This document shows, piece by piece, positions 17,330 through 64,000 of a DNA stretch of 64,000 bases. The DNA comes from a virus. The position numbers and the translations under genes were made by a program. Numbering within the stretch: position 1 is the stretch's first letter; every line of letters starts with the position of its first letter. The notes under the pieces are model-generated. The model was not told where the DNA came from, did no database searches, and worked only from the letters and a program-made list of their open reading frames with translations. The stretch lies in the IMG/VR virus record IMGVR_UViG_3300029286_000024, positions 1 to 64,000 of that record; one strand, written 5' to 3'.

Positions 17330-17338
17330 AAATATATT

Positions 17339-27718: not shown

Positions 27719-28030
27719 CTAGGCGGCAATTCGGGCCTTGCGGAATTTCTTAGCGGCCATGATGTTCCTCAATTTCGTTTCATGGTTGAGCATGATGGAA
27801 ACTACGTCTCTGGCAGAAAGGAGGCGACCTACGAGATTGAGTTCCAGAGCCTCATGGATAGCGGTACTGAAATCCCGTAGCCTCTCAACTTCTCTGGCTT
27901 CGTCCCTGTCAAAGAGGATCGTTCCATCGTTAAGCTGATAGGCCGTAGTTCTTGCCGTTTTTCCTACGATAGCCCCGTTGACAATTTGACCTTCTCCTTC
28001 TTTGGGAACCATGACCGATATATGTTTCAT
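27719..28030 (-). CDS. Hypothetical protein (last cassette of the array)
   Basis: 103 aa with its own promoter and SD. Confidence 0.7.
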   Translation of the reverse strand: MKHISVMVPKEGEGQIVNGAIVGKTARTTAYQLNDGTILFDRDEAREVERLRDFSTAIHEALELNLVGRLLSARDVVSIMLNHETKLRNIMAAKKFRKARIAA

Positions 28031-28163
28031 ATTGCTCCTGTCCTTTGTTATTGTTTATGCGGTACTTATACTACAGATTGCTAAGAATGTCAAGGGGAAA
28101 GTTGGTTTTTCTTTTGATGACATACATTTCCACGCTATAATAAATCTTGACATTCCCATGATT

Positions 28164-29087
28164 TTATGATATGCTTCCCGAAGTTGTTGACTTTTCTGTT
28201 TGGGCTTTGTTGGCATCCTCTTCTATTTCATGTTTGATATTCAGAATGTAATCGCTTGCCTTTTGCGCTTTGCCTGCTGCTAAGATCAACATTTTCGGAT
28301 CGGACTTTAGGGACTTAAGCCAATGTTGAATATAGGCCACGTTGTTATCCCAAGTCTTCGCAAGGCCAACATGATTGCAAAGGAAAATGCAAGTCATTTC
28401 TGCTACAAGTTCCTCTTTAGAATAGGCATGATCTACCGTAAAAGAGGACAGGCCGATTTCAGGACGAGCAAGGCGGCTAGAATGACCTGTAGAATGTCCT
28501 AACTCATGGAACATAGTAGCGTAGTAGCTTTCCTCATCATTAAACAATTCTTTTCTAGGCATATTGACATGATCAGCGGTAGGACAATAGAACGCTCTAG
28601 CCTCTTTGAATTGAATCTGAGGGGCTTTCTGCATTTCCTTAATGATCTTTTCCGCATCCTGTATGGGGTTGAATTGTATGACAGGGATTGAAGGGATTTT
28701 CTTGGCATCAATTCCTTCGGTTTGTTCGACGTTGAAAACGGTATAGTATCGAAGGAACGGGATTTTCTTTGCCTTGGTTGTTCCGTTATCTTGTTTCTCA
28801 TCAATCAAAAGCCATTTCCAATATACAACGGGGATACCATGTTCTCCCTTCTTGATTTTACCCCCAAGGTCTTTTGCCTGTTTGAAGGAAAGGAAATAGG
28901 GGGAAGCATAGCCAAGCATTGAAAGGATGAAAACGTTAATACCCCGATAGTTTTTCTTAGTTATCAGGTTTTTTGGCATTCCCCCGCCGAACCAAGGTTT
29001 ATGCCAAGGACAATTACCTTTTTCCAATTCCGCAACAACCTTGTCGGTGATCATCTTGTAGATTGTTTCTTGTCCGTTTTGGCTCAT
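28164..29087 (-). CDS. ardC: ArdC-family antirestriction protein (ssDNA-binding DUF1738 + zincin-like domain)
   Basis: PWHKPW…YRGIN…FLSFKQA…GGKIKKGE…YTVFNVEQ…AFYCP…HELGHSTGH…YSKEELVAE…YIQHWL. Confidence 0.92.
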   Translation of the reverse strand: MSQNGQETIYKMITDKVVAELEKGNCPWHKPWFGGGMPKNLITKKNYRGINVFILSMLGYASPYFLSFKQAKDLGGKIKKGEHGIPVVYWKWLLIDEKQDNGTTKAKKIPFLRYYTVFNVEQTEGIDAKKIPSIPVIQFNPIQDAEKIIKEMQKAPQIQFKEARAFYCPTADHVNMPRKELFNDEESYYATMFHELGHSTGHSSRLARPEIGLSSFTVDHAYSKEELVAEMTCIFLCNHVGLAKTWDNNVAYIQHWLKSLKSDPKMLILAAGKAQKASDYILNIKHEIEEDANKAQTEKSTTSGSIS

Positions 29088-29264
29088 GTAAATCTCCCTT
29101 GTTCTATTGTTCGAGCTTAACTATACCACAAATAATGGAAATGTCAAGCGGAAACAAAACTATTTTTGTTTCGCTGAGAAGAAAATGAAAGGATAATTAG
29201 GGTTTCCACGCTAGGGATTTTATTCAAATCCCACGCTAGAATAGGCAAAGATTTTAGTTGACAA

Positions 29265-29300
29265 AAAGGAAAAGGCTCCCTTACATTGAGAGCCTTTCCC
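29265..29300. terminator. Intrinsic terminator-like hairpin
   Basis: ggaaaaggctc…gagcctttcc inverted repeat downstream of the 29331 gene. Confidence 0.55.
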
Positions 29301-29330
29301 CTTGCTGATTATTTTAGTCTTTTTTTTTTA

Positions 29331-29855
29331 CTATTTCATATCTGCTACGATCTCATATTCCCCGCCGTTGAACCGCATTCCTTTGACGTTCGACATTTTG
29401 ACATCTCGGACAATGATTTCCTTTTCCAAGTCCGTTTGCGTTGACGTTGGGCCGCTTCGTTCAGGCATAAAGGGCGAAAGAATAGCCTTGTCAACAATCG
29501 TTCCTGTTGCGTCCCGATAGACAGGCGTATCGGTTGACTGCACTTTCATCTGAAGGTAATGCTCGCCCTTATGAGTTACGAAAATGCGGTCATCGGTTAA
29601 GACACCCCATGTTCTAGGCTTGGCTTCCCGTTCCTCTTTGCCTTCCCTGTTGGCTTGGTTGTTGACGCTGTTTTCGTAGTCAAAACCGATCAATCCATCC
29701 ATGCGGCAAAACTTGGTAATTCTGCCGAAAAACGGATTGCCTGTTTTGTTCATTTTCGGGGTTGTTGCGGCATCTACTGAGATTGCCGTACAACCTTTAA
29801 CCGTTCGCTGAATGATGTTGATTGCTTCGGATACTGTTATGACTGTTTTACCCAT
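29331..29855 (-). CDS. Conserved-looking phage hypothetical protein
   Basis: KMNKTGNPF…DYENSVNNQ…PRTWG; start corrected to 29855. Confidence 0.7.
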   Translation of the reverse strand: MGKTVITVSEAINIIQRTVKGCTAISVDAATTPKMNKTGNPFFGRITKFCRMDGLIGFDYENSVNNQANREGKEEREAKPRTWGVLTDDRIFVTHKGEHYLQMKVQSTDTPVYRDATGTIVDKAILSPFMPERSGPTSTQTDLEKEIIVRDVKMSNVKGMRFNGGEYEIVADMK

Positions 29856-30744
29856 GTTCGTCGTTCCTTTCCTCATTGTTTATGCGTAGAGTCTAACAGG
29901 TTTCTTGGTAAATGTCAAGCCTTATTTTTTGAGATTCTTGGTTGCATCCTTATTTAATTATCAAGAGGGTAGCATAACATTTAATGATATAAATGTCGAG
30001 AGAAAAATTCAACTTATTTGGCGTGGAAAATGTTGGGATATTAAGCGGGAATAGGGGAAGAAATTGTCCTCCCCCTACTCCACCAAGCAGCTTGTGACCG
30101 CTTGGCAACCATCAACAGGACATTATACCATAAACGACTAGTTAAGATACAGCGGGATTGAGCCAAGAGTATCACCAGTGCCAATAGTAGCAATGGGGAC
30201 GATCTCATATTTGGCGTCAATGAGTTCTCCAACGTCGAAATCCCTGACTTCGGGAACGCCGAACCATTGACGAATCCGAATCAATTCTCCATCACGATAA
30301 AGAGCGAACCAATTCATATTTCTCCTTTCTTAATGCTTATGCGAAGATTGTAGCAGATTTCTTGGAAAAGTCAAGGATTATTTTCTTACGTATTCAGGGT
30401 GAGGTCAAGAGTCATGAGCATCATTACCCATGCCCGAAGACGATCTGCTTTTGAAAGGGAACGAAGGTAATTCCGATCTACTCCTGTATAACGCATAGCA
30501 GCATAAGCATTCATTGTTTTTCCTCCATTGTTTGAATCAGCTTAACATAAATGAGTGGTAAAGTCAAGGATTATTTTCAAATTTCGGAAAGGGAGAAGTT
30601 AATTCCCCGTTGTTTCATGAGTTCTTCGAGTTCATTTTGATTACCTATGAAACGGCAATGGATGGCGATAGCTTTGCATCCTTCGTCAAAAGAGGGAAAG
30701 GCATAAAGTCTTTCTCCTATTCGCATATCATATCTCTCAGGCAT

Positions 30745-31030
30745 GTTCCTCCGATTTAAGTAGAGACTAACACAATCCGTGGGAAGAGTCAAGGATTATT
30801 CAGGCGGCAGCAATGGATTCGGTCTCAACCCACTTGAACATCCATTCTCTACCCACGATCAGGCGATATTCACTTTCCATGTAATCTTTCTGTTCCTGTT
30901 CGGTAAAGTCGGAGTCGGGGTTGGTTCGGTCAATTTCTTTCCACTCTTGAAGTTTGCATTTGCCCATTAGAATAGCCATAGTTCCTCCGATTTAAGTAGA
31001 GACTAACACAATCCGTGGGAAGAGTCAAGG
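30745..31030. repeat. Exact 50-bp direct repeat (30745-30794, 30981-31030) flanking one 59-aa ORF (30800-30979, -)
   Basis: gttcctccgatttaagtagagactaacacaatccgtgggaagagtcaagg identical in both copies. Confidence 0.95.
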
Positions 31031-31750
31031 CTATTCGGGGAGGACTTCTGAAATAGTTCCCACGTTAGGTCTCTTCCAACGGTTGCGAGTTCTTGTGGCA
31101 CGAAACTGATAAATGGCCCATCGAATATCCGAGCGGAGTTCATAGGCCCAATCAATGATGCAGTTCAGTTTTTCTTGTATATTTTTCATGCGATCATCCT
31201 ATCATTTAGTGGGTGGAAAGTCAAGCAATTTTAATCCATAATGTTCGGGAGGGAATTCTGCTCCCACGAATTTCCACGCCATAGTTTCCTTGTTCATGCT
31301 CAGATACTTGGCATTGTATTCGGGGAATTTTGGGTGCTCCTTTGACAGAAAGGTTTTGTCGGGAAACTCAAGCCAAAAATGCCATGAGTTATTCATTCGA
31401 CTCTTTAGGTTTGCTGACCAGTTTTCCTATTGCTTTAACCACATCATCTTTATTAAGCATGACTATCCTCTTGGCATTTAACTTAGTGGCACAGCAATCC
31501 ATCCTAAGCATATCCCATAAGGCATCAGTTAATGGTTTGACATCACATTTATTAATGTCTGACCACTTGGTATGTTCTTGATCATTCATTGACATCTACG
31601 GCTTTTTGACAATGGGGACACCAATAGACTTTGGTTCCGTTCTTATCAACAAGCAGTAATTCCATGTGGGTATTGCAAGTTTTACATTTCATGCGCATAC
31701 CTTATCATAATCAGTGGGTAATGTCAAGGGAAATTTCTTGAAACTCCCTG

Positions 31751-31978
31751 TCAAGGTTTATCTTCTCTAGGTTTATCGGCATAAGGGGAAATGTCAATGA
31801 TGATTTTACCGTTAGTACAAACTAAGTGAGCAAAGTAATCGCCTTGTTTAGTATATCGGGGCAAGGTTACAATATGAAAATCAGGACGCCGTTTAACAAA
31901 CCAATGAGATGCAGACCAGCAGCCCATTCTACGCTTTTTCGATTGCCATTCTCTTAAAACTCTGTCAATAGTTTTCAT
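31751..31978 (-). CDS. Small papain/transglutaminase-fold-like protein
   Basis: GC…AS…HLVC…IIIDIS (Cys-His-Asp order). Confidence 0.45.
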   Translation of the reverse strand: MKTIDRVLREWQSKKRRMGCWSASHWFVKRRPDFHIVTLPRYTKQGDYFAHLVCTNGKIIIDISPYADKPREDKP

Positions 31979-32266
31979 GCGTATACCTTATCATAATCAG
32001 TGGGTAATGTCAAGAGGTAAACTTTGCATTGTCCATTCGTTAGGCAAAGGGGTTCCTCCACCAACCCATTTATCATAGTTCATATCCTTGATGAAACTGT
32101 TAGCTTGTTCTTTGTTAAAACGAACAGGGATAGCATGATGAAAAGCAACTTTTTCCTTTGTTGTTTCATTGACATAGAAAACGCCATACTCTATGTTAGT
32201 TTTCATGCGAGCAGCCTATCACAATCAGTGGGTAATGTCAAGGTAATGTTTCAAAAACATTCCCTG

Positions 32267-32614
32267 TCAAGGTCTTTTCAGGAACATATAACAAAATTCA
32301 TTAGGGAAATCACTCCAACGAATAACTTTGAAGCCCATTCTCTTTAGCATTCTCTTCATGACAAAACCATTATGCCCATTGCCGTTATAGAGAAGGATCA
32401 AGAGACTTCTCCGTGTTTGCTGAAGGAATTGAGTCAGGACTTGTTTAGCTATTCCCTTCCCTCTTAATTTCTCATTAACCCAAATGTAGGAGAGATAATG
32501 GTAAGAGGGGACATGGAATTTTGAAGGGGAAGGAAGCGGGTCAAAAGTTTCGTAACTTCTATCCTTAATGATTGGCTCGTATTCGATATAGCCGCCATAG
32601 AATTCTACTTTCAT
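32267..32614 (-). CDS. GNAT-family acetyltransferase
   Basis: LSYIWVNEKLRGKGIAKQVL…RMGF. Confidence 0.75.
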   Translation of the reverse strand: MKVEFYGGYIEYEPIIKDRSYETFDPLPSPSKFHVPSYHYLSYIWVNEKLRGKGIAKQVLTQFLQQTRRSLLILLYNGNGHNGFVMKRMLKRMGFKVIRWSDFPNEFCYMFLKRP

Positions 32615-34625
32615 GCGTATAGCGTATCATTCAGTGGGAAGAAAGTCAAGGCTAAACTACGCAAAGGTCTTTAGGGTTGACAGAGCCTTGAATGGTAGGA
32701 TTTACTGCCCATGCTATTTCGGGAGAGGCACAACCTAATCTTGCTGCAACTCCATAGACATCGGAATAAATTTCAAACTCTTCGTAGTTGTCATAAACTT
32801 CATGGAGTTTTGCTTGCCATCCTTTGATTCCGCTTTTGGTAGTAACTATTTTCATGCGCACATCATATCATTCAGTGGGAAGAAAGTCAAGCTATTTCGT
32901 CTAGGAGAATAGCGGGATTTAGAATCGTCATTTGCTCAAAGGGAATGGTATGAGCATCGCCTTGAGGAACATCAGGCAAAGCAATTAACCCTCTCTCCTG
33001 CGCCTGTAAAACAACTTCCCGATGGAGCATATAAGTGGCAGCAATCGAGAGTGGTTCATGCCTTCGGATACGCCTAAGATACTCTATGAGTTCTGAATCG
33101 TTATAATGCCAAGTTGATCTCCACATATTCATAAGGGGCATACTAACAGAAGCAGGAAAGAATGTCAAGCAGGAAGAGAGAAGTCTTTTGTTATATTTCC
33201 TGTAGAGCAATCGTTGAAAGTTGGAATGAAATCTTGTTTTGCCAACTTGACGAAACGGTTTCTTGCTTTACCTTTGAGCAGGACATAGCATCCTTTGCCT
33301 GTTTGAAACGGGTCTTTAGGGTCAAAGGTTTCATCGAAGAAAGGAAAGCCACAATCAGCCCACCCGCTTCCCCGTAGGTAGACATACTTAGTTCCCATGT
33401 ATTCTAGTTCATCAGCGCAATAGCAATCGTGGGCTGTTTGAAGGTCAACTAGAAGTTCTCCGAAAGGGGTATCTTTAGGGATGTCAACGGTAGGGGCTTC
33501 ACCAAGCATTTTGAAATTAGGGAGCCATTTAATATGTTCCCCTTCCCATGTTAAGAGTTGTCGGGGGTAATCTCCTTTTCGGGGGTCTTTATTGGGGACA
33601 AAAGGGAAATGGCCTATCTCATTATTTTTCATGTGGCAATACTAACAGAAGATGGGATGGGTGTCAAGTATTATCTGAAATGATTTTGATTCCTCCACCG
33701 CCCATACCTACAGCAAAAATCCATGATCATTTTTTCTCCAAGTTTTTGCGGATTTTTGCTAATTCAGCGTCTATTTCGATAAAGAGAGTAGTCTTATCCA
33801 TTTTCACGCCAGAATAAAAGTCGCAGAGCGTTAGGGCAAGACGGTCATCTTGTGTTTCCCTAACGCCCCGCTATGGAGGTGCTACTTAACCAAGGCGATC
33901 TTTTCCTCAATCTCCTTCGTCATGGCGTTCTGTTCGAGATTGCGGCAGTTATACCCAAAACTATACTCATGAACCTTGAGAGCTTCGGTAATGCGGAAGA
34001 AATGGTGTTGCCACTCGAAGTTGACAACCTTTCCCTTTCCTTCGGCGGGAATATAGATACCCCGACAATGCGTAAAGAAACCCGTTACAGGGGCTTGCGG
34101 TAACGCCTTGCAGAGAATGTTGACCAACTGCTTACCAACCGATTGACCGTTCTTCATGATCTTTGCCATGTTCTTCCTCCTTATTGTTTATGCGTAGAGC
34201 TTAACAGAAAATGCGGATAATGTCAACAACAATCCCACCACATTTCTTCTTCAACATTCCTCTTAAAGTTGGCGATAGGCTCTTTCAAGGCATCAACCAA
34301 CCCACGCAGGATGCTAATGACTTCTTCTTCTCCTGCAGAATGTCCACGTTCATAAGCCATATAGGAAAGAGCCGATCTAAACTCTTCGGGGACATTGGCA
34401 AGAATTTCTTTGTATTGCTTTTTAACTTCTTCATCGGTCATATCTTCCCCATTGTTTGAGAAGAGCTTAACAGAAATTGGTGGTAATGTCAAGCCTTTTG
34501 TCCAAGATTTTTCAAGGCAAGAGCGGCAATCTTGGCATTGATTTTGCGCCACCATTCGCCATTAACCCATGTTCCTCTTTCAACAGCATCTTTCAAGGGT
34601 TGCGTTGACATGGTAGGACATTTAC

Positions 34626-35927
34626 GAGAGTGAGCGGGAAAGCCCACGAAGCGAGTCTTCGAGCGTCTTTAGTCGTGGGATGAAAGCGAACAAGTAAAAT
34701 ATATTTAGAAAAAAGAAGGAATTATTCTAAAAATTTTGTATAATATAGGTATGAAAGCAATTAAAGTAAAAATATATCCTAAGAAATGGCAAAAGGAGTT
34801 AATAGAAAAACACTTTGGTTGCTGTAGACTTATCTATAATTATGGATTAGAAAGAAAAACAAAGACATATCAAGAATCTAAAAAATCAATTGGGATTTAT
34901 ACTATTCAAAAAGAAATACCCAAAATGTATGAAGAAAAACCGTGGCTTAAAGAAGTTAATTCTCAAGCAATACAACAATCATTAAAAGACTTAGATTCTG
35001 CTTTCTCTCATTTTTTTAAAGCAAATAATTCTTTTCCTAAATTCAAATCGAAGAAAAATCCTAAGCAATCTTTTAGAGTCCCTCAGCATTTTGAAGTTAG
35101 TAAAGATAAGAAGCATATTAAAATACCTAAACTAAAGTGGATAAGATTCAAAGATAAATTCAATATTCCCAAAGATGTTGAATTTAGAAATATTACAATA
35201 TCAAGAAGTGGAAATGAATACTTTGCTTCAATTTGTTATGATGATAAAAAACAAATTCCAAGTTTAGCTAAAATAACTGAATCTAAAACAGTAGGAATTG
35301 ATTTAGGAACAAAAGTATTAGCAACATTATCAGATAATACAGTTATAGAAAACCCAAGACACTTTAAAAAATACGAAGATAAGTTAGCATTAGAACAACA
35401 AAAATTATCTAAGAAAACAAACAGAGAAACTAAATCATATCAGAAACAGAAAAATAAGGTCAATAAAATACATAAAAAGATAAGTAATACGAGAAAAGAT
35501 TTTCTTCATAAATTAACTACAAATCTAGTTGAGAACAAAGACTGGACTAGTTATGCTATTGAAGATTTAGCAGTGAAAGATATGCTTCAAAATAATTCAA
35601 CCAGTATGTCAAGAACAATAGGTGATACTGGTTGGAGAATGCTTAGAAGTATGATGGAATACAAGTGCAATGAAAAAGGTAAGAATCTTTTGGTTATAGG
35701 AAGATTTGAGCCTTCTTCTAAACTCTGTTATTGCGGTGTAAAAAATAATGAGTTAGAACTAAAAGACAGGAAGTGGACTTGTAAAAATTGTGGTCTAACT
35801 CATAATAGAGATGAGTTAGCTGCTAATAACATTAAGAATTTTGCTTTAATAAAGAGTCTGGGCAAAGACTTTAGCGAGCGTAAGCGAGCTTAGAACCCCA
35901 CGATCTTTAGTCGTGGGAGTATGTCAG
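34626..35927 (+). mobile_element. Non-autonomous IS200/IS605-family (IS1341-like, tnpB-only) element
   Basis: Subterminal hairpins cccacga…tcgtggg at both ends (about 34643-34679 and 35897-35917); inserted after TTTAC, ends TCAG; no target duplication; lower GC than the flanks. Confidence 0.85.
34751..35893 (+). CDS. tnpB: TnpB RNA-guided endonuclease
   Basis: HTH (KIYP…FGCCRLIYN), RuvC I VGIDLG, RuvC II AIEDL, Zn finger CYCG…CKNCG, RuvC III RDELAANNI; start ATG 34751. Confidence 0.93.
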   Translation: MKAIKVKIYPKKWQKELIEKHFGCCRLIYNYGLERKTKTYQESKKSIGIYTIQKEIPKMYEEKPWLKEVNSQAIQQSLKDLDSAFSHFFKANNSFPKFKSKKNPKQSFRVPQHFEVSKDKKHIKIPKLKWIRFKDKFNIPKDVEFRNITISRSGNEYFASICYDDKKQIPSLAKITESKTVGIDLGTKVLATLSDNTVIENPRHFKKYEDKLALEQQKLSKKTNRETKSYQKQKNKVNKIHKKISNTRKDFLHKLTTNLVENKDWTSYAIEDLAVKDMLQNNSTSMSRTIGDTGWRMLRSMMEYKCNEKGKNLLVIGRFEPSSKLCYCGVKNNELELKDRKWTCKNCGLTHNRDELAANNIKNFALIKSLGKDFSERKRA

Positions 35928-36607
35928 ACCAACGCTTTTGAGCTATTCTTTTCATAAGGGAAGATTACCCTAAGAGAGCAAGAATGTCAAGCTTTCTTTT
36001 TGAGGTCAATTCCAAGGGTGAGCAAAGTATCTTGGATAATGACAGCCTGATCGCCTCTCAAACTCTTCCAATCGAATCGAGAGAGTCTTTCTATTGCGTT
36101 ATTTTCTTTAATGCGTTGGAGGTCTACAGGAGTAGCAACTTGGATACGTTGTTTTGACCATGTATCGCTTCCACGCTGAGACCCGTTAATATCAAAAGAG
36201 GATTCGCCAACATAAATAGTTCCGCCTCTTCCATCGGTAATTCGGGTAATGCGAGTAAGACTTTCGGGCCGATAGGAGTTCCCGTTATCATAAACGAGCA
36301 TCCCAACTTTCCAATTACCAAGTTCTTGAAGTTCTTTAGCCATGACTTTCCTCCATCGTTAAGAAGAGATTAACAGAAAGGGGTGAGAATGTCAAGGTTA
36401 ATCTTCAACGCAAGAGCCATCGCCGTTATGAGTAATCCAATGGCATCCGCATTTAGGACAGAAATGGCTTTCCTTGGCAGGTTTCTTGATTGACTTAGCA
36501 GGCTTCTTTTTGTTTGGTTTCTTCATTTCCACTCCAGATTTTTCAGGGGAGGGGGATAAACCTCTTTGCTAAAATTTTCCCCCTCCCCACCCTCTCGCCT
36601 GCTAAGA

Positions 36608-39014: not shown

Positions 39015-39775
39015 GTTTTCTCCTATTGTTAAAGAGAGATTACCACAAAGAGGGAAGAATGTCAAAACAATTTTAGTATCATTAGGATATTGATGGCACT
39101 CCCTATGGTCATGATTGCCATACAGGTTTGCGTAAATTGGTTAGTAAGTTCGGGTCTGAAAATTCCTATCGCAAAAGCAGTTCCGCAACACAAAAAAGCG
39201 ATAGACGGACAAATGATTACCAAGAGTTTTTTTGCTTTGCTCATTTTTCTCCTATTGTTTAAGAGAGGGTATCACAAAAGGGAAAGAATGTCAAGGCTTA
39301 TCTTCAACGATCCGAAGTTCTTTGATGTCAGGCAACCAATACCAATCGTTACCAATATGGACATTTTTGTTTGCGACTTCCAATACGACTCCTCTTTTCT
39401 TGGTATCAATAAATGCGCTTCTCGCATCTTCCCATTCAACAAGCTTCCCAATGAGTTTTCTAGCGTCAGGTGTTTTCATTCTTCCCCTTATTGTTGAAAA
39501 GAGATTACCACAAAAGGGAAAGAATGTCAAGGTTATTTGTTTGGGTCTCTCCAAAAACAGAACTGATCGGCTAATGAAAACTCAAACAGGCCAATGGGAA
39601 AATTGTCATAGGGCATTATGTTTCCAAGAATCCAACTGCCCTGCCACTTCCCATCATAGAACATCGTTACGCTTTTCTCGCCTCTAGCACCTACATGGTC
39701 AACTCTTCCGATTGCTTTCATGTTACTCCTTATTGATTTTTGATACGAAGAGATTACCACAAATTGTTGGGAATG

Positions 39776-41482: not shown

Positions 41483-43199
41483 ACGAAGAGCTTATCACAA
41501 AACCTATGAAATGTCAAGGTTTTTCTAACTTGATTACAGGAGTGTTAGTTACGCTTGCTTTGATCATTTCGATTTTCAGTTGGAGTTCTATTTGCTTGGT
41601 TTTCTCTTTCTCAATTTCAACTTTGCTTAGAGTGGTAAAGCCAGCAGCACAGATAATGCTATGAAGAACCAAGTCGTTTCGTTATCAAAAATGTTCATTC
41701 GTGTCCTTTTTTACGTGCTTCTACTGCCAACTCTTCTAGTAATCTCATCCCTTCTTTTGAAGATCTCTCCCAATTCTTTTTGAGGTAATAGAGGGCGGCA
41801 GCGGTATCGGCTTTTTCTTCATCTGATTTGGTGGCAAATATAGATGATGGGAAATTACATTTTTCCAAGGTATTCCAAAGACATTGCCCCAAAATAATAT
41901 GGATAACCTTTTTTGCCCCAAACTTCTCGATAGCCAAAGCAATAACATCTTCGGCTTTCAAGGTTACTTTTGTGAAGTATTCAAGGCTTGTATTTATGGG
42001 TTTCTTACTTTTCATGGCAATACTATAGCAGATTATTGGGGAATGTCAAGCTATTTTATCAAGCATCAGCCATTCATCGGTTTTGGCATTATAAGCGAAA
42101 CGACAAGAGAACATGGCGTTAAGATGATCTATGAGAGCAGAATAAGCAGCTTCTTCCCCATGACCATCTTCCCATTTTAGAATAGAATCCCGATCAACAA
42201 GAATGACATTGGTTTGATCAACGGAAACGTATTTGATTCCCACAGAGCTTAGGTAATCTTCAACCTTTTTTCTATCTTCAAATTTCATGCGAATAGATTA
42301 CCAAAAAATTTAGGAAATGTCAAGGGAAATTAGTCGTAACTCCAAGGATCAAAAGAGGATTCCCAAACAACTTCCACGCCAGAATCACATCCCTCTCCAT
42401 CCGAAACAGCCTTGTAGAGAGCATTCTTGAGACGGCGACGATCAATCTGCCGATGCATTTGCTTGGTGGCAGCATCAGCATGGACCTTCTTGTAATTATC
42501 CACGTCACAAACAAGCACCTCCTTGTAAATGCGGGAGATACCTTCGACCTGCCAATACTCCTTGCCGAAAACCTCTTCGATTTTGGGATAGAGATTGAGG
42601 GAAACATCCTTGTAGGGATTGAGGATTTCCCCGTTGTAATGTTCAAACCAACGAGACGCCTTACGAAACGTTCGAGACATATATACTCCTTTAGACAGCT
42701 TTATTGCCGTCATTAGTATCTAGTATGTCTCATAGCATCTCCTTTTTTTTGAATTATTTAACCTACCAACTTGGGTTTTGCTTCTTTTATCAGATGAAGG
42801 TCTGCTTTTGGGTAATGGGTATCTTTGAGTTTTTTTGCTTCCTGATTTGCTAATTGAGCACTATGTAAAATGACGCCGATCCGAATAAAGTTGACGAGAA
42901 TCTTAAAACCATCTTCATCAACTACGACATCAATTTGACTCATGCGCTACCTCCGAATCCATTGTTTGAAAGCATTGTAACACATTTCATAAAAAAAGCA
43001 AGAACTATTTTCTGTTTCTTTTTACCCATGCCAACAGGTCATCAATATCACTAGCCGTTGCAAGCTCGCCTTCGTCCTGCTCATCGAAACGCAGAATGAA
43101 ACCTTTTGCGTACCTGAGAGCCTTGACGAGTTTGTTTATGATTTGCTTATTGGTTGCTTTCTTCATATTCATTCCTTAATGGTTATACGCATCATATCA

Positions 43200-43649: not shown

Positions 43650-44260
43650 GCGTATACCCTATCACATTCAGTGGGTAATGTCAAGGATTATCGCCAATGT
43701 ATTTTCCATCCTGCTATATGAAGCCACTTTCTAATAGTGGACGGATGTTTTTTTGCTGAGGCGGCGATTTCCTTAATGGATTGTCCTGAGCGATAGCAAT
43801 TTTTAGCAGATATGATAGCGCATACCCTTGCAAATCTTTCCATTCTTTTCATGCGCATACCCTATCACATTCAGTGGGTAATGTCAACAATTAAATACTC
43901 GGAAGTCCATCATGATAAAGGGATTTTCGTAGCCTAATGACATCTTCCCAAACTTCCAAGATTCATATTTCTGCTTCGGCATTTCAACAAACTCAACAGC
44001 CGAAACCAAGGTATGTCGTTTCATTACACGCTTGATTATCCAAGTAGCTTTTCGTAAACTGATTCCTTCTTTGAAAAGATAACCGCTATTGAATAAACAG
44101 CTTTTCTTTACGACAGGCAAGGTTATGAAGATTCGGAAACTTGCATCGTCACTCCAATCATCAACCGAAACATCTATATCCGCTCGCCCTGTTGATAATC
44201 GAAAAGCAGTCTCTAACTCTGCTGCTATCTTTCGAGCCTTGGTAATCTGATTTTCAGTGG

Positions 44261-44659
44261 TCATCCAAATTTTTCCTTTAGCCGTTGATACTCCGCAAGT
44301 TCCTTAGTATGAACATCTTGTGCTTCGACCTGCTGCATGATTCCAAGGATATTATTTGCTTTCAGTAGTCGTTGGATTTCCTGTTCAGCATCGCAAAAGG
44401 TAAATTCAGGAGAGCCATAGCAAGGGTAGCTCAAGGTCTGTTGAAGAAACCTAACCTTATCGGAAATGGTGGTAAAGTATTCTTCCCAAAAGCCAAGCTG
44501 ATTGTAGTGAGCGATATGGCCGAACGTATTGGAAAGCCGTTGATAAAACTTCTTGGTAAAGAGATGTTGAGGAAATCCCTTTTCGACAAAGGCCATAAAT
44601 TGTTTCACGAATTTCGCCTTGTCTTCTGCCGTACTGAATTTTGTAGCCGTGTAGTTCAT
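44261..44659 (-). CDS. Hypothetical protein
   Basis: FTKKFYQRLSNTFGHIAHYNQLGFW; start corrected. Confidence 0.65.
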   Translation of the reverse strand: MNYTATKFSTAEDKAKFVKQFMAFVEKGFPQHLFTKKFYQRLSNTFGHIAHYNQLGFWEEYFTTISDKVRFLQQTLSYPCYGSPEFTFCDAEQEIQRLLKANNILGIMQQVEAQDVHTKELAEYQRLKEKFG

Positions 44660-45294: not shown

Positions 45295-46038
45295 TCAAGG
45301 ATTTTCAAAAGAAAGTATTTCAACTTTAGGAGAAGCATCTACCCATTCACTCGCAAATGCAGAAGTATCAACAGAAGAACAGCTTAGAGTACAAGTGGGA
45401 TACCCTTCAAGAAACGAAGAAAATGTTTTTGATTTACGTTCAAGATAACATTGCCTGCCGCTGTATTCAAACGGACAACTACCTTGGGGAAGAATAAAGG
45501 TTCCTGCATTGGCTACTTCTATTGCCACGCCTAATGTCATCAGGTCTGCCACGCCGTTATATTTAAGCCATTCTCCTTTGGTCTGCCCGATTTGTCCGAA
45601 AGGTGGATTAGAAACCGCAAAATCAAATTGGCCTAACTTATCCCATAATTTCTTATCAAAAATGTCTCCTTGAACCCATGTTGCTTCGGGGACTAATTTC
45701 CTACCAACTTCAAGAAATCTTTGGTTACGTTCGACACAAACCACTTTCAGTTTGAGACTTTCGCATCCTTGAATCGTTGCTGTATCTATGGCGGCTCTTG
45801 AAAGTCCTCCAATACCCGCAGCAATATCTACCAACGTTCCTGATTCGGGAGTATACATAGCCACAGCATAAGTCATATTGATCGGGGTAAAAAAGGCGGC
45901 AATCTTCCCTACCAATTCATCATAAGACGGTTGATAGTTCTCAAAGACAAATTCCCTTTCGGTCATTTTAAGGGTATGCTTTTTGAGAAGGTCAATGGCT
46001 TGTTCGTGCAGCTTGATTTTCTGTTTCGATAATTTCAT
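45295..46038 (-). CDS. SAM-dependent amino-methyltransferase (probable DNA adenine MTase)
   Basis: AFFTP, VDIAAGIGGL (motif I), AVSNPPFG (motif IV), FILPQ. Confidence 0.85.
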   Translation of the reverse strand: MKLSKQKIKLHEQAIDLLKKHTLKMTEREFVFENYQPSYDELVGKIAAFFTPINMTYAVAMYTPESGTLVDIAAGIGGLSRAAIDTATIQGCESLKLKVVCVERNQRFLEVGRKLVPEATWVQGDIFDKKLWDKLGQFDFAVSNPPFGQIGQTKGEWLKYNGVADLMTLGVAIEVANAGTFILPQGSCPFEYSGRQCYLERKSKTFSSFLEGYPTCTLSCSSVDTSAFASEWVDASPKVEILSFENP

Positions 46039-51433: not shown

Positions 51434-52023
51434 ATTTCTCCTATTGTTTGAATAAGAGCTTACCACAAAACTTTGGAAATGTCAAGAATATTCTCTTGGA
51501 TTTTCAGGACATGAATTGCAAGCAGCGGTTCCTAGTATCGGGCAGGTCGGGCAATCATCAGGAGTTGCGCCTTGGGGAATTTTCTCTGCGCATTCGGGAC
51601 AATACATTTTTTCCTTCTTGCCTTTCTTAACGGAATCCTCAACATCAAAAGTCTTCTTACATTCTGAGCAACCAAACGTATCGTCCTTTTCCCGTTTGCT
51701 TTCCAAGGCTCCGCTAAGGTCTATGATATGCGTCGGGTCTTGTTCGTTAATATCTGTCCAAATGATAACCCGTAACTTTCCATTGACCTGCTCAATCAGG
51801 ATAGGGCAACCATTACCGTCACTTGAATAGTAATCCCCATATCCTTTAGCTTTGATAAGGATGCTACGGTCTCCATTGATTTCAACTTGAACAGGGATAG
51901 GAGGAATTTTCCCATTCTTATCATCCAACTGTTCCCGAAGTAAGGCACTCAATTTATGCATTTTCTTCTCCATTGTTTATGCGAAGAGTTTACCACAACT
52001 TTACGATAATGTCAAGAAGAAAG

Positions 52024-52096
52024 TACCCCCAATCGGACTCGAACCGATGACCCATACATTAAAAGTGTATTGCTCTGCCAACTGAGCTATGGGGGC
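52024..52096 (-). tRNA. tRNA-Lys(UUU)
   Basis: GCCCCCA TAGCTCAGTTGGCAGAGC A ATACA CTTTTAA TGTAT GGGTC ATCGG TTCGAGT CCGAT TGGGGGT A; canonical cloverleaf, CCA not encoded. Confidence 0.93.
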
Positions 52097-52100
52097 ATTC

Positions 52101-53030: not shown

Positions 53031-53104
53031 TGTTCCTCCATTGTTTAATTGTTAAAGAATAGCATAGCAGAAAGAATCGGGAAAAGCAAGAACAATCACA
53101 AAAA

Positions 53105-54481: not shown

Positions 54482-54522
54482 GAAGCCACGATAACATTGC
54501 TTGGGAAAAATGTCAAGGGAAA

Positions 54523-56123: not shown

Positions 56124-56199
56124 TGGTGGTCAAAGCGGGACTCGAACCCACACAAACTTGATTTAGAGTCAAGCGCATTAACCCTTCTGCCATTTGACC
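56124..56199 (-). tRNA. Amber-suppressor tRNA (anticodon CUA)
   Basis: GGTCAAA TG GCAGAAGGGTTAATGC G CTTGA CTCTAAA TCAAG TTTGT GTGGG TTCGAGT CCCGC TTTGACC A CCA; perfect acceptor and anticodon stems, encoded CCA. Confidence 0.9.
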
Positions 56200-56368
56200 T
56201 ATTGATTGTTTCAGAGGCTATCAAGCATCTCTTTTGCCAGACGAATATCCTTATAGGTAAGTCCATAACCAAAATTTTTCGAGTCAACTTCTTTTTGGTT
56301 TTCGGGAGAGCCATCATACTCTAGAGCAATCCATCTCCATAACTGTCTGATAATATGTTCAATAGTGC

Positions 56369-58108: not shown

Positions 58109-58540
58109 TTATTTATCCTTTTCTTCTCGACAACGAATTACTGTAGCTTGCTTTTCCCGAACATTCTGCATCTCATTGGTATCGCCTGCTTGATATGCCT
58201 TCTGATATTCTGCGGCGAGTTCCTTATCTTCTGCTAGTCTTTCTGATTTCTTGGTGCAACCCTCTTCCCATGAAATCAATATTCCGCCAATAAATACAAT
58301 AGCCCAACCAACAGTAAACTTTGTCAACCAAGGACTAGGTACACCCATTTCATTCCCGTATTGAATTATCATTACCATAATCGCAAAAATAAATACAATA
58401 AGGAATCCTCCATCCTGAAAATGTTCCCAAATCATACCTCCCGCAAATCCCCAAGCCAAAGTGCGAATAGAAGTACTCCCGAAAATAATACCTAGGATGA
58501 CAACTGCCCAAATGATTAGAAGTGGCAATAGTTCAGTCAT
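58109..58540 (-). CDS. Membrane protein
   Basis: Three to four hydrophobic segments. Confidence 0.7.
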   Translation of the reverse strand: MTELLPLLIIWAVVILGIIFGSTSIRTLAWGFAGGMIWEHFQDGGFLIVFIFAIMVMIIQYGNEMGVPSPWLTKFTVGWAIVFIGGILISWEEGCTKKSERLAEDKELAAEYQKAYQAGDTNEMQNVREKQATVIRCREEKDK

Positions 58541-59469
58541 GTTATTTCTCTACAATTTCAAAGAGGTTTTTCTTCAATCCGAAAACGCAAGAGCCATTAC
58601 CAAATTGAAAGTTGACATATTCCCCTTCGTCATTGAATATATCCCCTTCAACAATGTCCCCCTTATAGAAAGTTTCATCCGATCTTTCCACAATGACATC
58701 TCTAATCTCATCGAAGTTTGCAACAACTTCCATGGAACAGTCTTCTAGGAATTTGATTTTCATAACGTCATCCTATCACAAAGAATGAGAAATGTCAAGG
58801 AAGATATTTGATCTGCCTGCGAACAATATCTTTTTCCCCCTTAAATTGAACATCGCAATCCAAGATTCCATCCCTTTTGCTATGAATCTTGATTACTTTG
58901 GCAATTCCCTCATGCTTGTGTTGGGTTAGTACATCCTCAAAGACTTCAACGCAAGCTCCTACGATAGGTTTCCATGCAGGAATGTCGCCGGTCTTTTCAA
59001 ATACATCAAGAATATTTTTCTTCATTTAGCCTTTCAATAGATATTCGAGTTTAGTCATGGAAATGCGCATACCCTCTTCCATATCAGAAACAACGTCCAT
59101 GGGAATTTTTTATGCCAGTATCTAAACTGCTCTGCACAATTCCATGATGAACCCTAGTAGCATCAAGAACTTCCTGAACGACCCGCTTGGTTTCCTGTTC
59201 TTTGGCGTATGCTTTTCGAGCCGCTTCTTTGCCACCCTTATCCATAAAGCTCCTTATGTCTCTTTTTGGTGTTTTTCTTAAAAGTAACTGTCCATACGCC
59301 TGACATAAGACGAGAAGCCGTAAGATGTCGAATAGGTTTCCCTTGAATAACTTTGTTATATTCCACGTCAGACATATTTAGGGAATACGAATTTCTGTAA
59401 TTCTTCCCGCCATTAGTTAAAGTTACTTTGCTTCCCAGTTCCATATTACTCCTTTATCCCAGAAATGTC

Positions 59470-59620
59470 ATCTCTCGTAGAATTCGCCCTTTTTACTCAG
59501 AGGGAACTTTGGTCAAGCCCGAACCCTACGAAAGTTGCTTCCCACCTACTTAGCCGACCCGGTTCAGCGGGAGTGGTTAGCCTCAACTACTTAGGACTGA
59601 ACTCCCTTTCGTCTCTTATT
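59470..59620 (-). ncRNA. Candidate structured RNA (leader or sRNA) occupying a cassette slot
   Basis: About 170 nt without an ORF between the promoter (59630-59658) and the gene at 59444; 15-bp stem CTTTCGTAGGGTTCG/CGAATTCTACGAGAG enclosing two small hairpins. Confidence 0.5.
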
Positions 59621-59953
59621 GTTACGCACATCATAACAGAAATGATGGTAAATGTCAAGTCTTTTTTTCTCTTTTCCATCCACCCAGCTCTTTAGCAATC
59701 TTTTCAAGAATCTTTTTCCATTCTGTTTCTGATTTCACATTCCTTATAAGAGGATCAAGAACAACATCGGCATCAACCCCCTTATGCCCTTGTTTTGTAT
59801 TCTGAGAAAGAAAGCAAGCCATTTGATAACTGACGCAAGTTAAATAGTCGGCTCGATCCGTCTTACTATTCGGCCATGCATCACCATCATCAATATGTTC
59901 CTGCGCATAATGACATGCCTTTGCCATCATTGTAACCAATTTCATGTTTCCTC

Positions 59954-60418
59954 CTAGTCCATTACATCTTCATCTCGATAAGAACATTGATTGCATTTGT
60001 AAGTAATGAGAGCGCATTCAGGCCCCATCATTTTGCTCTTACGGGTAATGGAATCTAGAGCTTGACATTGCGGACAAAAACGATTAGCTAAATAATTATC
60101 ATGGTAATTTTTATCACTGATTTTACCAATAACACAATTGGCTTGGTAAATCAACTTACCCTTAACATCCATTGCCGCCAAAGTAAATCCAACGAAAGGA
60201 CTTATTCCTTTAGGTTCAAATTTGTCTCGAAGAGGCTTTTCAAACTTGAAGTAAGCAACGGTAGCAACACCTAACTGCTTATGATCGTAAGTCTTGACAT
60301 CAACAGAATGAGAATCCCCTACAAGAATACAACCCCGATTTTTCCAGTCCTTATTGGGAGCATCACGAATTGCTTTCTTAGCCAACTTCAACATGGTTTC
60401 TGCGTTAATCAATAGCAT
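59954..60418 (-). CDS. Hypothetical protein with C-terminal Zn ribbon
   Basis: CPQC…CNQC; start corrected. Confidence 0.65.
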   Translation of the reverse strand: MLLINAETMLKLAKKAIRDAPNKDWKNRGCILVGDSHSVDVKTYDHKQLGVATVAYFKFEKPLRDKFEPKGISPFVGFTLAAMDVKGKLIYQANCVIGKISDKNYHDNYLANRFCPQCQALDSITRKSKMMGPECALITYKCNQCSYRDEDVMD

Positions 60419-62231
60419 GTTTTTCTCCTTATTGTTGCGCAGATTACCACAAGTATCAGGGAATGTCAAGGATTATCTTACAGGCTCTAATACGTTGAAA
60501 AATTCAGAACCACCACTTGTCCAGAAATAGATACTAAGTCCATGAGCGGTAAAATGATTGTAGTCATCCCTTTGCCCATTAAACGTAAAAATGGTATCTT
60601 TAGGAAATGTCACGCCACATTCATCATCATGGCCTGCTACCGTAGCCTCTTCCGTAAGTATGTAATGACTACCCACAATTAAATCTGCTTCTTTCATTTT
60701 TTCTCCTTATTGTTATGCGCATCATATCATTACGTAGAGGAAATGTCAAGCTAAATCCCATAGCTCTTTGTAATCTCGCAAAACCAATTTCCGACAATCA
60801 GGTGGAAGAGAAGAGAAAGAAATTCTTGTTCCTAAATGATTTTTTCTTCCGATAGCAGGAGGCCAACAATACTTCCCATTCTTGCCTATCGTATCTATAA
60901 TCCTGTTGTGCTCCCCATGTAATCCTATGCCCTGTGGATGAAAAGGCGAACCTGACATGGCAAGATAGGGGTGATAGGTAAACTGACTAGCTTGGTGACA
61001 GTTATTAAAATTCCCCGAAAAAACAACAGTATATCTGTCAGAACTTCCATTAACAGCATCTATCCCCCCGTTATCATAGCATCTCACGTATTTCGGAATG
61101 CCCAATGGAAGCAAACTTTTTTGTCTAGCTTTTTGTCGCTTGGTCATTTACCCTCAATGATTTGTGCCGAATAACCGTTAGCTTCAAATAGTTTCCCCGT
61201 AATATGCTCCCTAACTTCTTTGGCAGGCATATCTGGCTCATTCTCCAGAATTACAGCGTACCAATGAATTTCCGCTATCTCTTTCCCTTTCTTGGTATTC
61301 GGGAAAGAAGTAGTACCCAGAACCTTACCGTCTGCCATCTCAACTACATTGACTGTCTTAACTGATTTCATGTTTTTTCTCCTTGTTAATATTGTTGACC
61401 CTATCACAATCCAAAAGAAATGTCAAGAGTTCGTTGCAATTTTGAATCTCTTGGGAACATGTAACCCGCAACGAAAAGCACCATCAACGAAATAAGTAGC
61501 AGGCCTGTCGCAAGAGTAAAGATTAGAACAACCGTCATAGGGCACCTTTTTTTCGCACTGGTTATTTTCCCATTCTTTACGTGTAACCCTACGAAGACCT
61601 TTTTTAATCTTAATCATGTTCCTTCCTCAATTCTTTCGGCTCCACCCCAAATATATTTTCTTTCTGCCGCTATCTCTTTCCCCGTTTTAATACACATAGA
61701 CCTTATTTTTTTCAACAATAGCGCAAGAGGATCATTCAGCATTAAGGTTTGATAAGAGTCGTTAGGATGATTCCCTGAAAAATAAAGAACACAACCATTG
61801 TCAAGCATAATCGTATACCCATAACGATTATATTCCCCTATGACATTACGCTTTTTCATTTTCATATACGCATCATATCATTACGTGGAGGAAATGTCAA
61901 GGCTTTAATTTAGGAAACTCAGGCAATTCAAATTTCGCAAAATGAGCCTCTTCTAATTCTTTCTCGTACATAAATTGACCATCAGCAGCATGAATAAGAC
62001 CATTAGCGCACTTGTAAACCCTAACAATCATCCATTCAGGCTTGTTCTTAGTAATACTGGTCATCTTCCCATAACGATAACCATAGAACCAATAGTTACC
62101 TACTTTGTTCGGGAATTTAGTTGTCCATTTCACTTTCATATACGCATCCTATCATTATGTATGAGAAATGTCAAGAATAAAAAAGATATTTGTTTGAAGG
62201 AAATTCTCAAGAAATATAGAAATAACTATAT

Positions 62232-62393
62232 ATGAAAACACATCAAAAAAATAAACGAGACGGGTTCTATATGGCGATTATTCCAGAAGAACGAAAGATG
62301 ATTGATAGGCTACAGGAGCAGGCAATTAATGTTTCCCAAGCATTCAAGCTGTTCCTTAAACAAATGCTTGAAAGGATTGAAAAGCATGAATAA
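62232..62393 (+). CDS. Small ribbon-helix-helix-like protein (53 aa)
   Basis: MKTHQKNKRDGFYMAIIPEERKMIDRLQEQAINVSQAFKLFLKQMLERIEKHE*; INVSQAF..FL resembles RHH helix B; overlaps the endonuclease start. Confidence 0.55.
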   Translation: MKTHQKNKRDGFYMAIIPEERKMIDRLQEQAINVSQAFKLFLKQMLERIEKHE

Positions 62394-63216
62394 ATGTGGA
62401 ATTTACTGTATAAGAAATTTGACCAATGATAAGAGGTATATCGGTAGTACAAGTAATATGGAAAGGCGATGGAGTCAACATAGAAGACTCCTTAAAAGAA
62501 ATTTACATGAAAATCCTATTCTCCAATTTTCTTACAATAAACACGGAGAAAATAATTTTATTTATGAACTCCTAGAATTATGTAGCGAATCAAATCTCAT
62601 AGAAATCGAAGATAAATATATTAGACTTTTTGACACCATGAATAGAAATCATGGCTACAATTTTGATCTTCCTAGCCGACCTAACCAAAGCCCAGAAGCA
62701 AACGAGAAAAGAAGGCTTGCTATGACTGGAAGAAAAATGAGCGAAAAACAAAGAATTCAAATGAGTATAGACAGAACAGGGAAAAAACATACTCCTGAAC
62801 ATAAAGCCGCAACAAAACTAGCTATACAAAACAGAACCCAAGAAGAGAAAGAGGCAATCTATAAAAAAATATCAGAAGCCAATAAGGGTAAAATAATGAG
62901 CCAAGAAGCTAGACGGAAAATAGGGTTAGCTCATTTGGGAACAAAATATTCAGAAGAGAGCAAAACAAAAATGTCTGAAGCTCATAAGGGGAGTAAGAAT
63001 CCCAACTATGGTAGAACAGGAGAACATCATTGGCATTATGGGAAACATTTTTCTAGTGAAACAAAAGAAAAAATGCGTTTGGCACATAGCGGTAGTAACA
63101 ATCACAACTATGGCAAACCCATGTCCGAAGAGCAAAAACAAAAAATAAGCGAAACGAAGAAGAGACAATATCAAGAGAAATTACTTCTAAAATTTAATGT
63201 CAATGTCGAAGTATAA
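62386..63216 (+). CDS. Free-standing GIY-YIG homing endonuclease with NUMOD3 repeats
   Basis: CGIYCIRN…RYIGST…RRWSQH…E…GYN; repeats SEESKTKMSEAHKG, SSETKEKMRLAHSG, SEEQKQKISE; start ATG 62386. Confidence 0.9.
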   Translation: MNKCGIYCIRNLTNDKRYIGSTSNMERRWSQHRRLLKRNLHENPILQFSYNKHGENNFIYELLELCSESNLIEIEDKYIRLFDTMNRNHGYNFDLPSRPNQSPEANEKRRLAMTGRKMSEKQRIQMSIDRTGKKHTPEHKAATKLAIQNRTQEEKEAIYKKISEANKGKIMSQEARRKIGLAHLGTKYSEESKTKMSEAHKGSKNPNYGRTGEHHWHYGKHFSSETKEKMRLAHSGSNNHNYGKPMSEEQKQKISETKKRQYQEKLLLKFNVNVEV

Positions 63217-63922
63217 CCATTTTGCTTCCCCTTACTTGACAACGATTACATACCCTACAGTCCCCTTTGCAAACCCCGTATCCTTTTGGCCTATCCTTCT
63301 TATCCTCAATCATCAGGAAAATGTTAGGAATACCCTCTTTCTGAAAACCCGAACCAGAAACAATTAAGTGGCGAACATTTTTGAAATTCAAATCTTTCCT
63401 AGCAGAATAACAGTAGGTTTTTACATTGAAACGATTTAACAACCGTGCAACTTTTTCAACCTTATCTAAGTCGTTCTGATTATGAAAATCTCCGCTTTCA
63501 TTGAACCGCAAAGAAGTCCATGGATTGTTTCTTGTTGAATTTATCAAAAGAAATTGCGTAACAAATTCTTCTGCCGTTATGGTTTCCCAATACTTTTTTT
63601 GAGCATCCCGATAAGGTTGAACAAAAGGACGAGAAGAATTTTCAGAACGTTTCGCATAACAAACGTGCGTCCCCGCTTTCTTCCCCTTTTTCAAAATAGC
63701 CTGACAAAATCCCAACTTAAATGAAGGACAGGAATGAGCACTAGAAAGGTTATAGATAGCTGTTGAAGTAGGAAGTTTATAGTTGCCAGAACCCAGTAAA
63801 GAATAGAGCTTGCAAAAATCTCTAATCTTTCCCCCTTCGATCATTACATTGGCAAAACGTTTAAGGGGAACGTTAGCCGCTATTCTAGACAAAGGGATTT
63901 TTTCTACTTGAATTTCCTGCAT
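63200..63922 (-). CDS. Phage gp88-like protein
   Basis: GNYKL…SCP…C…CYA…RFNESGDF…Y.YSAR…CKGDCRVCNRC. Confidence 0.72.
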   Translation of the reverse strand: MQEIQVEKIPLSRIAANVPLKRFANVMIEGGKIRDFCKLYSLLGSGNYKLPTSTAIYNLSSAHSCPSFKLGFCQAILKKGKKAGTHVCYAKRSENSSRPFVQPYRDAQKKYWETITAEEFVTQFLLINSTRNNPWTSLRFNESGDFHNQNDLDKVEKVARLLNRFNVKTYCYSARKDLNFKNVRHLIVSGSGFQKEGIPNIFLMIEDKKDRPKGYGVCKGDCRVCNRCQVRGSKMVILRH

Positions 63923-64000
63923 TTATATCTCCGTTGTTGTGCGTAAGGTATCAGAAGGTTTAGGAAATGTCAAGGTTATTTTACTTGAGGAAGCCCGAAA

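Follow-up and report, generated by a model that had tools for sequence, protein, structure and literature searches.

A large array of repeated promoter modules and small genes on a probable jumbo phage fragment from lake water

We describe an array of small genes and repeated promoters on a virus fragment from lake water. The window analysed is the whole stretch of 64,000 nucleotides (nt) that forms bases 1-64000 of one contig of 82,012 base pairs (bp), IMG/VR virus record IMGVR_UViG_3300029286_000024; its source is lake-water metagenomes, and the stretch is present in three runs. About half of this 82-kb fragment is taken up by the array, in which 71 copies of a strong sigma-70-like promoter module and about 111 genes follow one another on the minus strand with no terminators between them, a scale that in itself makes this promoter-cassette architecture of interest. 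Upstream genes prefer to end on a stop codon inside the next -35 box, like copies of the module cluster, the order of shared genes is scrambled in relatives, and breakpoints lie at modules. We believe, at a probability of about 0.6, that the array is the early hyperplastic region of a probably jumbo lake phage and owes its form to tight packing and to modules that act as crossover points for general recombination.

If so, the sigma-70-type RNA polymerase of the host would fire all 71 copies at once, presumably early in infection, and since no terminators stand between the modules transcription would add up along the mostly orphan genes. Each gene would abut the next module, where the TGA contained in TTGACA is the last end point that can be used without adding a tail to the protein; deletion-driven packing and selection would thus leave one third of the genes at this point and one fifth 5-6 nt before it. 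As the only sizeable homology between otherwise unrelated genes, the modules would serve as crossover points, and general recombination of the phage at these points would add, delete and reorder genes, as has been reported for the PeSL (promoter-early stem-loop) cassettes of T4-type phages. Such recombination between modules would then be a main driver of the shuffling.

The PeSL cassettes are the closest known kind, and the array is a very large, hairpin-free version of them. As far as they are described in the accessible text of the respective papers, PeSLs are strong sigma-70-like promoters in repeated copies, each with a stem-loop terminator and, on the upstream side, an AT-rich tract in which the upstream stop lies (Arbiol et al. 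2010, PMC2839356). Insertions and deletions (indels) as well as mini-circles arise by exchange between them, and no dedicated recombinase is involved (PMC2839356; Comeau et al. 2014, PMC4122927). The first-pass annotation had named these cassettes among its analogues, and they proved to be the right one. As in the T4-type phages, strong sigma-70-like and putatively early promoters are repeated between small orphan genes (71 copies vs about 5 expected), upstream stops lie at the promoter edge, relatives (here distant ones) differ in gene content and order with breaks in homology at or inside the modules, and no dedicated recombinase was found. The association with orphan genes is shared as well, at most 21 of 110 array proteins having a Pfam match. 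Different from PeSLs however, the lake array lacks a stem-loop or terminator, its upstream stops lie inside the -35 box and not in an AT-rich tract, about one third of its modules fuse the promoter to a predicted leaderless ATGAAA start, and it reaches 71 copies over 41.6 kb. Moreover, no PHROG or Pfam match to a T4 core gene was found in the 29 larger open reading frames (ORFs) scanned of the contig, which is 43% complete.

Promoter modules and the stop codon in the -35 box

The strict pattern TTGACW-N16-18-TANNNT has 71 matches in the window, as compared to 5.4 +/- 2.1 expected from 100 shuffles with a largest shuffle count of 11. On the minus strand of the window lie 62 distinct copies, from 29147 to 63973, and the array continues beyond the window to 69804 with 9 further copies, which makes 71 on the minus strand of the contig. 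The array and two examples of its modules, one with a predicted leaderless start and one with a Shine-Dalgarno (SD) leader, are located as follows.

Contig 28164-69804, minus strand: whole array, 71 modules and about 111 genes, 41.6 kb
28164-63975, minus strand: part of the array in the window, 62 modules and about 95 small genes
43846-43887, minus strand: module with predicted leaderless start; -35 box, 17-nt spacer with ACCCAC motif, extended -10 box, 6-nt discriminator, ATGAAA
39253-39294, minus strand: module with SD leader; promoter, then about 20 nt of leader containing AGGAG; the TGA in the -35 box terminates the upstream ORF (39291-39479)

The consensus module is about 44 nt long and consists of C-TTGACW, a spacer of 16-17 nt and TAnnnT; a C precedes TTGAC in 64 of the 71 modules and a TG precedes the -10 box (extended -10) in 63. 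Downstream of the -10 box the modules follow two designs. In the first, an ATG, mostly as ATGAAA, lies 5-8 nt past the -10 box (21 modules by distance, 25 genes by gene calls), and judged by its sequence this design should give rise to leaderless mRNAs. The second, represented by 39 modules, contains the SD leader of about 20 nt bearing AGGAG. The 29-nt core of the first example recurs identically at 43684 and 46558. Terminator-like sites are not enriched in the array (13 vs 16.3 expected), nor do the modules tend to fold: the mean fold z-score of the 71 modules is 0.05 as compared to -0.10 for controls, and four subfamily examples, with z-scores of -0.19 to 1.15, revealed no stem-loop or attC-like structure. 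Stops in all three frames are found in 35 of the 71 modules (19.1 in shuffles); we see no design in them but a side effect of the TG-n-TA and ATGA motifs. On the plus strand, two consensus promoters that have the same -10 region are directed into the end of the array (27610-27638 and 28147-28175), where they lie antisense to the ArdC gene described below and to a gene of 103 amino acids (aa), and may provide for convergent transcription that closes the array.

The gene map comprises 111 genes between 28164 and 69717 with a coding share of 82%, which end on TGA (53), TAA (39) or TAG (19). According to the first-pass annotation nearly every small gene has a promoter of its own; this proved true of only 67 of the 111, the remainder being arranged in units of two to four genes.

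According to the gene calls, the TGA of TTGAC terminates the upstream ORF at 24 of the 71 promoters. The 22 ORF ends given in the first-pass annotation are all correct, and the set also includes 34223 in the window and 69172 beyond it; an ORF of 52 aa with a TTG start that ends at 41514 is a doubtful further case. Other ORFs stop shortly ahead of the box, seven at 6 nt and seven at 5 nt, and a further six extend into the promoter; LDFPPTK, LDITH, LDISST and LTLPPK, the read-through tails noticed earlier, are all present. That the promoter supplies the stop codon, and does so above chance, is borne out by two counts. Among the 60 upstream genes that end within the promoter or at most 60 nt from the box, 35 are in the frame of the TGA where 20 would be expected (p=6e-5), and the TGA terminates 24 of the 30 ORFs extending as far as the box, where 10 would be expected (p=2e-7), the other 6 reading on. 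A count independent of annotation, which takes the longest open frame upstream and in which any bias runs against the TGA frame, gave a TGA stop at 26 of 68 promoters.

This overlap is a general habit of tightly packed phage promoter arrays, because unrelated arrays show it too. Among the matches listed, dense arrays on unrelated metagenome contigs have a TGA stop at 68 of 264 promoters, some of these contigs overlapping one another so that the cases are not all independent, and 68 of their 113 box-reaching ORFs stop on the TGA (p=5e-9). In the relatives of the phage the corresponding numbers, again among the matches listed, are 7 of 32 promoters and 7 of 18 box-reaching ORFs and do not reach significance. 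Extreme packing around a promoter with a stop codon in its consensus is the best explanation of the overlap. A literature search for overlaps of -35 box and stop codon or for leaderless promoter arrays returned nothing on point, which is not proof that none has been published. For annotation a practical rule would follow, namely that ORFs prefer to end on the TGA of the next TTGACA and that many genes are predicted to start leaderless 6-7 nt past the -10 box; such genes will be miscalled by programs that presuppose intergenic space and an SD sequence.

Likeness of the module copies and exchange between modules

Copies of the promoter are up to 29/29 identical while the array genes are unrelated. 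Identity between copies begins 0-2 nt ahead of TTGAC and ends 12-19 nt past the -10 box, at the start codon, and it is highest among neighbours: at least 17 of 21 variable letters are shared by 11 of 64 adjacent promoter pairs, as compared to 40 of 2016 pairs that are not adjacent. When the order of the promoters was permuted 5000 times, the observed likeness of neighbours was never reached. Several of these like adjacent pairs flank a single ORF of 54-75 aa, one case being the following.

30745-31030, minus strand: two module copies, each about 50 nt long, that agree in every letter between 2 nt ahead of the -35 box and 19 nt beyond the -10 box, with a single unrelated ORF of 59 aa between them

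Such clustering of like copies fits insertion and deletion by exchange between modules, and local gene conversion would leave the same pattern.

Further evidence comes from phages with the same module. Exact-sequence look-ups found the same proteins on two or three assemblies only. A scan of metagenomes with the leaderless-module pattern yielded at least 117 contigs and at least 50 locus-strands with four or more strict promoters, each group having its own spacer family. In IMG/VR, no close relatives were found through the methyltransferase-like protein, an AAA protein or alignment A2, two promoter-module patterns had zero matches, and the relatives found through ArdC and alignment A1 (L001-L009, L128-L132) are distant phages without arrays. 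Among the matches listed, five sources have both the ACCCAC-type spacer and homologous small genes in common with the array; in one of them the contigs L022, L033, L087 and L108 tile about 8.3 kb of a single relative, and L122, L058 and L054 represent the others. Nine genes are shared with the four tiling contigs, L122 and L058 (among the matches listed), and no adjacent gene pair of these relatives is adjacent in the array. In the tiled relative, about three quarters of whose genes are without a homologue in the contig, the homologues follow each other in the order 44659, 31396, 51961, 47242-like and 39479, which corresponds to array positions 44.6, 31.4, 51.9, 47.2 and 39.4 kb. The breaks in homology lie at or inside modules. 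For the 39291-39479 gene homology stops exactly at the -35 box, a point at which the relative has only a module remnant without this box; for the 31202-31396 gene it passes through the next promoter and ends after the -10 box; and between L033 and L122 it breaks inside the spacer. At about 1474-1500 of L033 (minus strand as shown) a module remnant retains the ACCCAC-type spacer and the predicted leaderless start but has no -35 box, so that the upstream ORF continues as far as a TGA within the former spacer.

Four marine contigs (L014, L073, L099 and L120) that are unrelated to the phage but of the same build are about 88-95% identical to one another and contain eight non-redundant indels. Two of these, a single leaderless ORF of 217 bp and a block of 3,194 bp, occur at about 95% identity and have the promoter module as a direct repeat on either side, with an overlap of 49-56 bp. 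Among the others, an 8-bp ATGAATAA repeat is present at one, different repeats of 21 and 43 bp are present at two, and three have no repeat. Exchange between modules thus happens in such arrays, as one route among several. In L014, L073 and L099 a family of repeats of about 95-130 bp with 75-85% identity surrounds the promoters and is longer than the module of the lake phage.

Several observations weigh against the modules as crossover points. Six of the eight marine indels lie away from promoter repeats. Genes do not stay paired with their promoters, and there is no fixed unit of promoter plus ORF: the 39291-39479 gene has its own promoter in the array and none in the relative, and for the 31202-31396 gene the reverse is true. 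The comparison with related genomes which the first-pass annotation had proposed produced the scrambled order and the breaks at modules, but a promoter-less junction (44264/44261) is likewise broken in the relative and a close relative of the phage was not found. The junction evidence comes from phages with 40-70% protein identity, and at this distance any breakpoint falls between genes and hence, here, at a module; breaks between genes are also what selection alone would leave. In the lake itself, contigs from the Logan assemblies of the three runs do not differ from the window in the pieces compared, save for an insertion sequence (IS), and break at exact promoter repeats. They contain no rearranged form or population variant, although contigs cannot show rare variants. 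These contigs have 17 candidate joints for circles or rearrangements; at each of the 15 that were inspected the shorter side has 20-59 fitting letters, and 20-40 at promoter-to-promoter joints, and we read them as repeat or diverged-IS artefacts. Finally, some spacers of the relatives are identical to array copies at 17/17 letters, and identity is about 77% at the ten letters not fixed by selection, a figure biased upward because the modules were picked by motif, whereas four shared genes agree at only 41-52% of their third codon positions. On sequence grounds, the binding of a factor and not recombination may be the reason for a spacer that is letter-perfect between diverged phages. Either way it offers a handle on whether regulation or recombination maintains promoter repeats.

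How much of this could be achieved by packing and expression alone? On such an account the modules would be alike because strong early transcription is selected for, and their spacer might include an operator to which a phage or host factor binds. The TGA overlap would be the end point of compaction, and genes would turn over by illegitimate recombination filtered by selection, without any role of the module. The marine indels are in keeping with it, several of them comprising exactly one ORF with no more than 8 bp of microhomology, and so are the conservation of spacers across phages far beyond that of silent sites, the loose pairing of promoter and gene and the generality of the TGA habit. 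It would not readily explain, however, that neighbours are far more alike than distant copies, some to the letter over about 50 nt with unrelated genes between them, that two of the eight marine indels bear the signature of homologous exchange between modules, and that a module remnant is found at a breakpoint. We consider packing and expression alone a possible but rather unlikely explanation. The role of the promoter as a recombination joint, which the first-pass annotation had inferred, is accordingly plausible and partly supported: the like neighbours, the sharp edges of identity, the breaks in relatives and two marine indels speak for it, and the remaining indels and the unstable gene-promoter pairing do not. 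A bolder version appears doubtful to us, in which the stop-promoter-start module of about 44 nt would be a portable joint of a clade of uncultivated aquatic jumbo phages. Its spacer would stay letter-perfect between phages with silent sites saturated in their shared genes because a factor encoded by the phage recognises it, and either this factor or homology as such would drive the capture of single ORFs, without an integrase, into an anti-defence array of 40 kb; if true, it would be a promoter-based counterpart of the integron.

Genes of the array and nature of the phage

The 110 array proteins that were compared with Pfam and PHROG match 21 and 32 families, respectively, with one member each, and only two paralogue pairs exist among 125 ORFs. 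The Pfam matches include ArdC-N with a zincin peptidase domain, DUF6876, HAD_SAK_2 (a domain of the RNA-repair type), SprT-like and GP88, as well as methyltransferase, GNAT, YopX and HTH families. The ArdC and methyltransferase-like proteins stand out as candidates for anti-defence functions among about 90 array proteins without a Pfam match, which makes the array a promising source of further anti-defence genes, and the gene content would be consistent with an early host-takeover and anti-defence hyperplastic region. Individual genes in the array and in the two arms of the contig are listed below.

28164-29087, minus strand: ArdC-type anti-restriction protein, last gene of the array; ArdC-N and zincin peptidase, E 2e-35 and 3e-36
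34736-35893, plus strand: TnpB (IS200/IS605-type) gene, inserted in the array in a low-GC stretch on the opposite strand
44261-44659, minus strand: small gene; homologues are found in relative A (65% identity) and in IMG/VR phages that are distant and GC-rich
45295-46038, minus strand: methyltransferase-like gene, predicted leaderless, ends on the TGA of a -35 box
52023-52096, minus strand: tRNA-Lys(UUU), within the array
56124-56199, minus strand: tRNA with CUA anticodon, within the array; labelled Pyl by ARAGORN, Rfam tRNA score 66 bits
62302-63216, plus strand: GIY-YIG/NUMOD homing endonuclease, an opposite-strand insertion in the array
22901-24286, left arm: topoisomerase-IB-like gene
Contig 78820-79953 and 81165-81950 (L010:14820-15953 and 17165-17950), right arm: phrog_3532 repeat proteins

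The one array member that matches a DNA-methyltransferase PHROG family is presumably the gene at 45295-46038. In a distant GC-rich IMG/VR phage (L132:8951-10387) the homologue of the 44261-44659 gene directly adjoins an ArdC homologue, an arrangement that suggests a functional pair.

IMG/VR classes the record as a linear virus with a completeness of 43% according to CheckV. The contig lacks a terminal overlap, for which reason a circular contig was rejected, and its ends do not represent the ends of the genome. The large proteins of the left arm are nearly blank in PHROGs and Pfam, with the exception of DUF4159, LRV repeats and the topoisomerase-IB-like domain. The right arm contains two GIY-YIG/NUMOD endonucleases, which brings the GIY-YIG endonucleases of the contig to three, a second TnpB, a radical-SAM protein and the phrog_3532 repeat proteins. 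The best named matches of the repeat protein are multi-copy genes of jumbo phages (Listeria phage LPJP1, 54%; Bacillus phage G, 52%). This family, labelled 'tryptophan repeat gene family' in one record, occupies 31-35 places each in Bacillus phage G, Listeria phage LPJP1 and Bacillus phage BpSp and occurs in Escherichia coli jumbo phages too. The record is probably part of a large, virulent and uncultivated lake phage of the jumbo type. TG-extended -10 boxes and strong AGGAG sites would, we assume, fit a Bacillota-like host. Megablast of three stretches against the phage and plasmid collections and tblastn of two left-arm proteins against phages gave zero matches, and no RNA dataset is among the runs listed with the stretch.

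Could the array instead be the leading-region anti-defence island of a conjugative plasmid or an integrative and conjugative element, misfiled as viral? A run of small genes on one strand with ArdC, an orphan methyltransferase-like gene, DUF6876 and SprT-like domains would suit such an island, and neither terminase nor capsid families were detected in the ORFs scanned of this 43% complete contig. The fragment, however, contains no match to VirB4 or VirD4 (PF03135, PF02534) and does contain three GIY-YIG/NUMOD endonucleases, two tRNAs and a repeat family common to jumbo phages, its IMG/VR class is virus, and relatives and analogues of the same architecture carry phage-type genes, all of which makes a non-phage origin very improbable.

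The tRNA with the CUA anticodon, which is suppressor-like, raised the question of an alternative genetic code. Reading TAG, TGA or TAA as sense does not make the large ORFs usefully longer, and since no stop codon read as sense helps, the code is the standard one; for TAG in particular no longer ORFs result in the contig. The TnpB element (34600-35990 of the window) lies just downstream of the promoter at 35990, whose leaderless ORF seems to have been cut after about nine codons beside a hairpin-like IS end. Many diverged copies of this IS are found elsewhere in the lake metagenomes (loose ends at 35890-35932), and their other contexts might provide a pointer to the host. The GC content of the array (28000-64000) is 0.39-0.42 as compared to 0.34-0.385 in the arm (1-27000), the exceptions being the IS and endonuclease insertions.

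Other architectures compared

The first-pass annotation had described the array as integron-like with no integrase in view. The second part holds, as the tyrosine and serine recombinase families PF00589 and PF00239 have no match in the 82 kb of this fragment while control genomes do match. The first part does not, for the array fails every integron criterion examined. It shares with integrons the one-directional single-ORF units and the short repeated junctions that are able to hold a stop codon, but the fragment is without an IntI match and without attC hairpins, and its junction is a promoter. Integron cassettes are mostly promoterless, whereas 67 of the 111 lake genes have their own consensus promoter. 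The least credible explanation of the array is an integron-like capture in which a dedicated site-specific recombinase, either encoded beyond the fragment or of a novel type for which the topoisomerase IB of the left arm would be an example, inserts single-ORF cassettes at the left edge of the module: the sharp edges of identity at C-TTGAC, the single ORFs between identical modules, the presence of the topoisomerase-IB-like gene and the incompleteness of the contig would allow for it, but it conflicts with the missing recombinase, with module folding no better than in shuffles, with the promoters owned by most genes and with the mixed junction types of the marine indels. As to the topoisomerase, poxvirus-type enzymes of class IB act at YCCTT, and such a site at the module edge was rejected since YCC precedes TT in only 12 of the 71 modules.

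Blocks of tiny orphan genes are known from other phages. The 'ORFanage' of S-PM2, a contiguous block of 33 dispensable tiny orphan genes in 9.5 kb whose synteny is rarely kept on metagenome fragments (Puxty et al. 2015, PMC4503421), resembles the lake array in this respect but is smaller, and the accessible text of the paper describes neither a repeated promoter module nor a stop overlap. The accessible text of a paper on Ma-LMM01 (PMC5780444) offered no parallel.

The likeness to the host-takeover module of SPO1 and to similar early clusters is one of architecture, with small early genes on one strand and many strong host-type promoters that have an extended -10 box. The SPO1 module comprises only about 24-26 genes as compared to about 111 in the lake array. 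We know of no report of promoter-mediated shuffling in SPO1. A further likeness to the SPO1-type large phages of Bacillota lies outside the array, in the repeat protein of the right arm with its best matches in Listeria and Bacillus jumbo phages.

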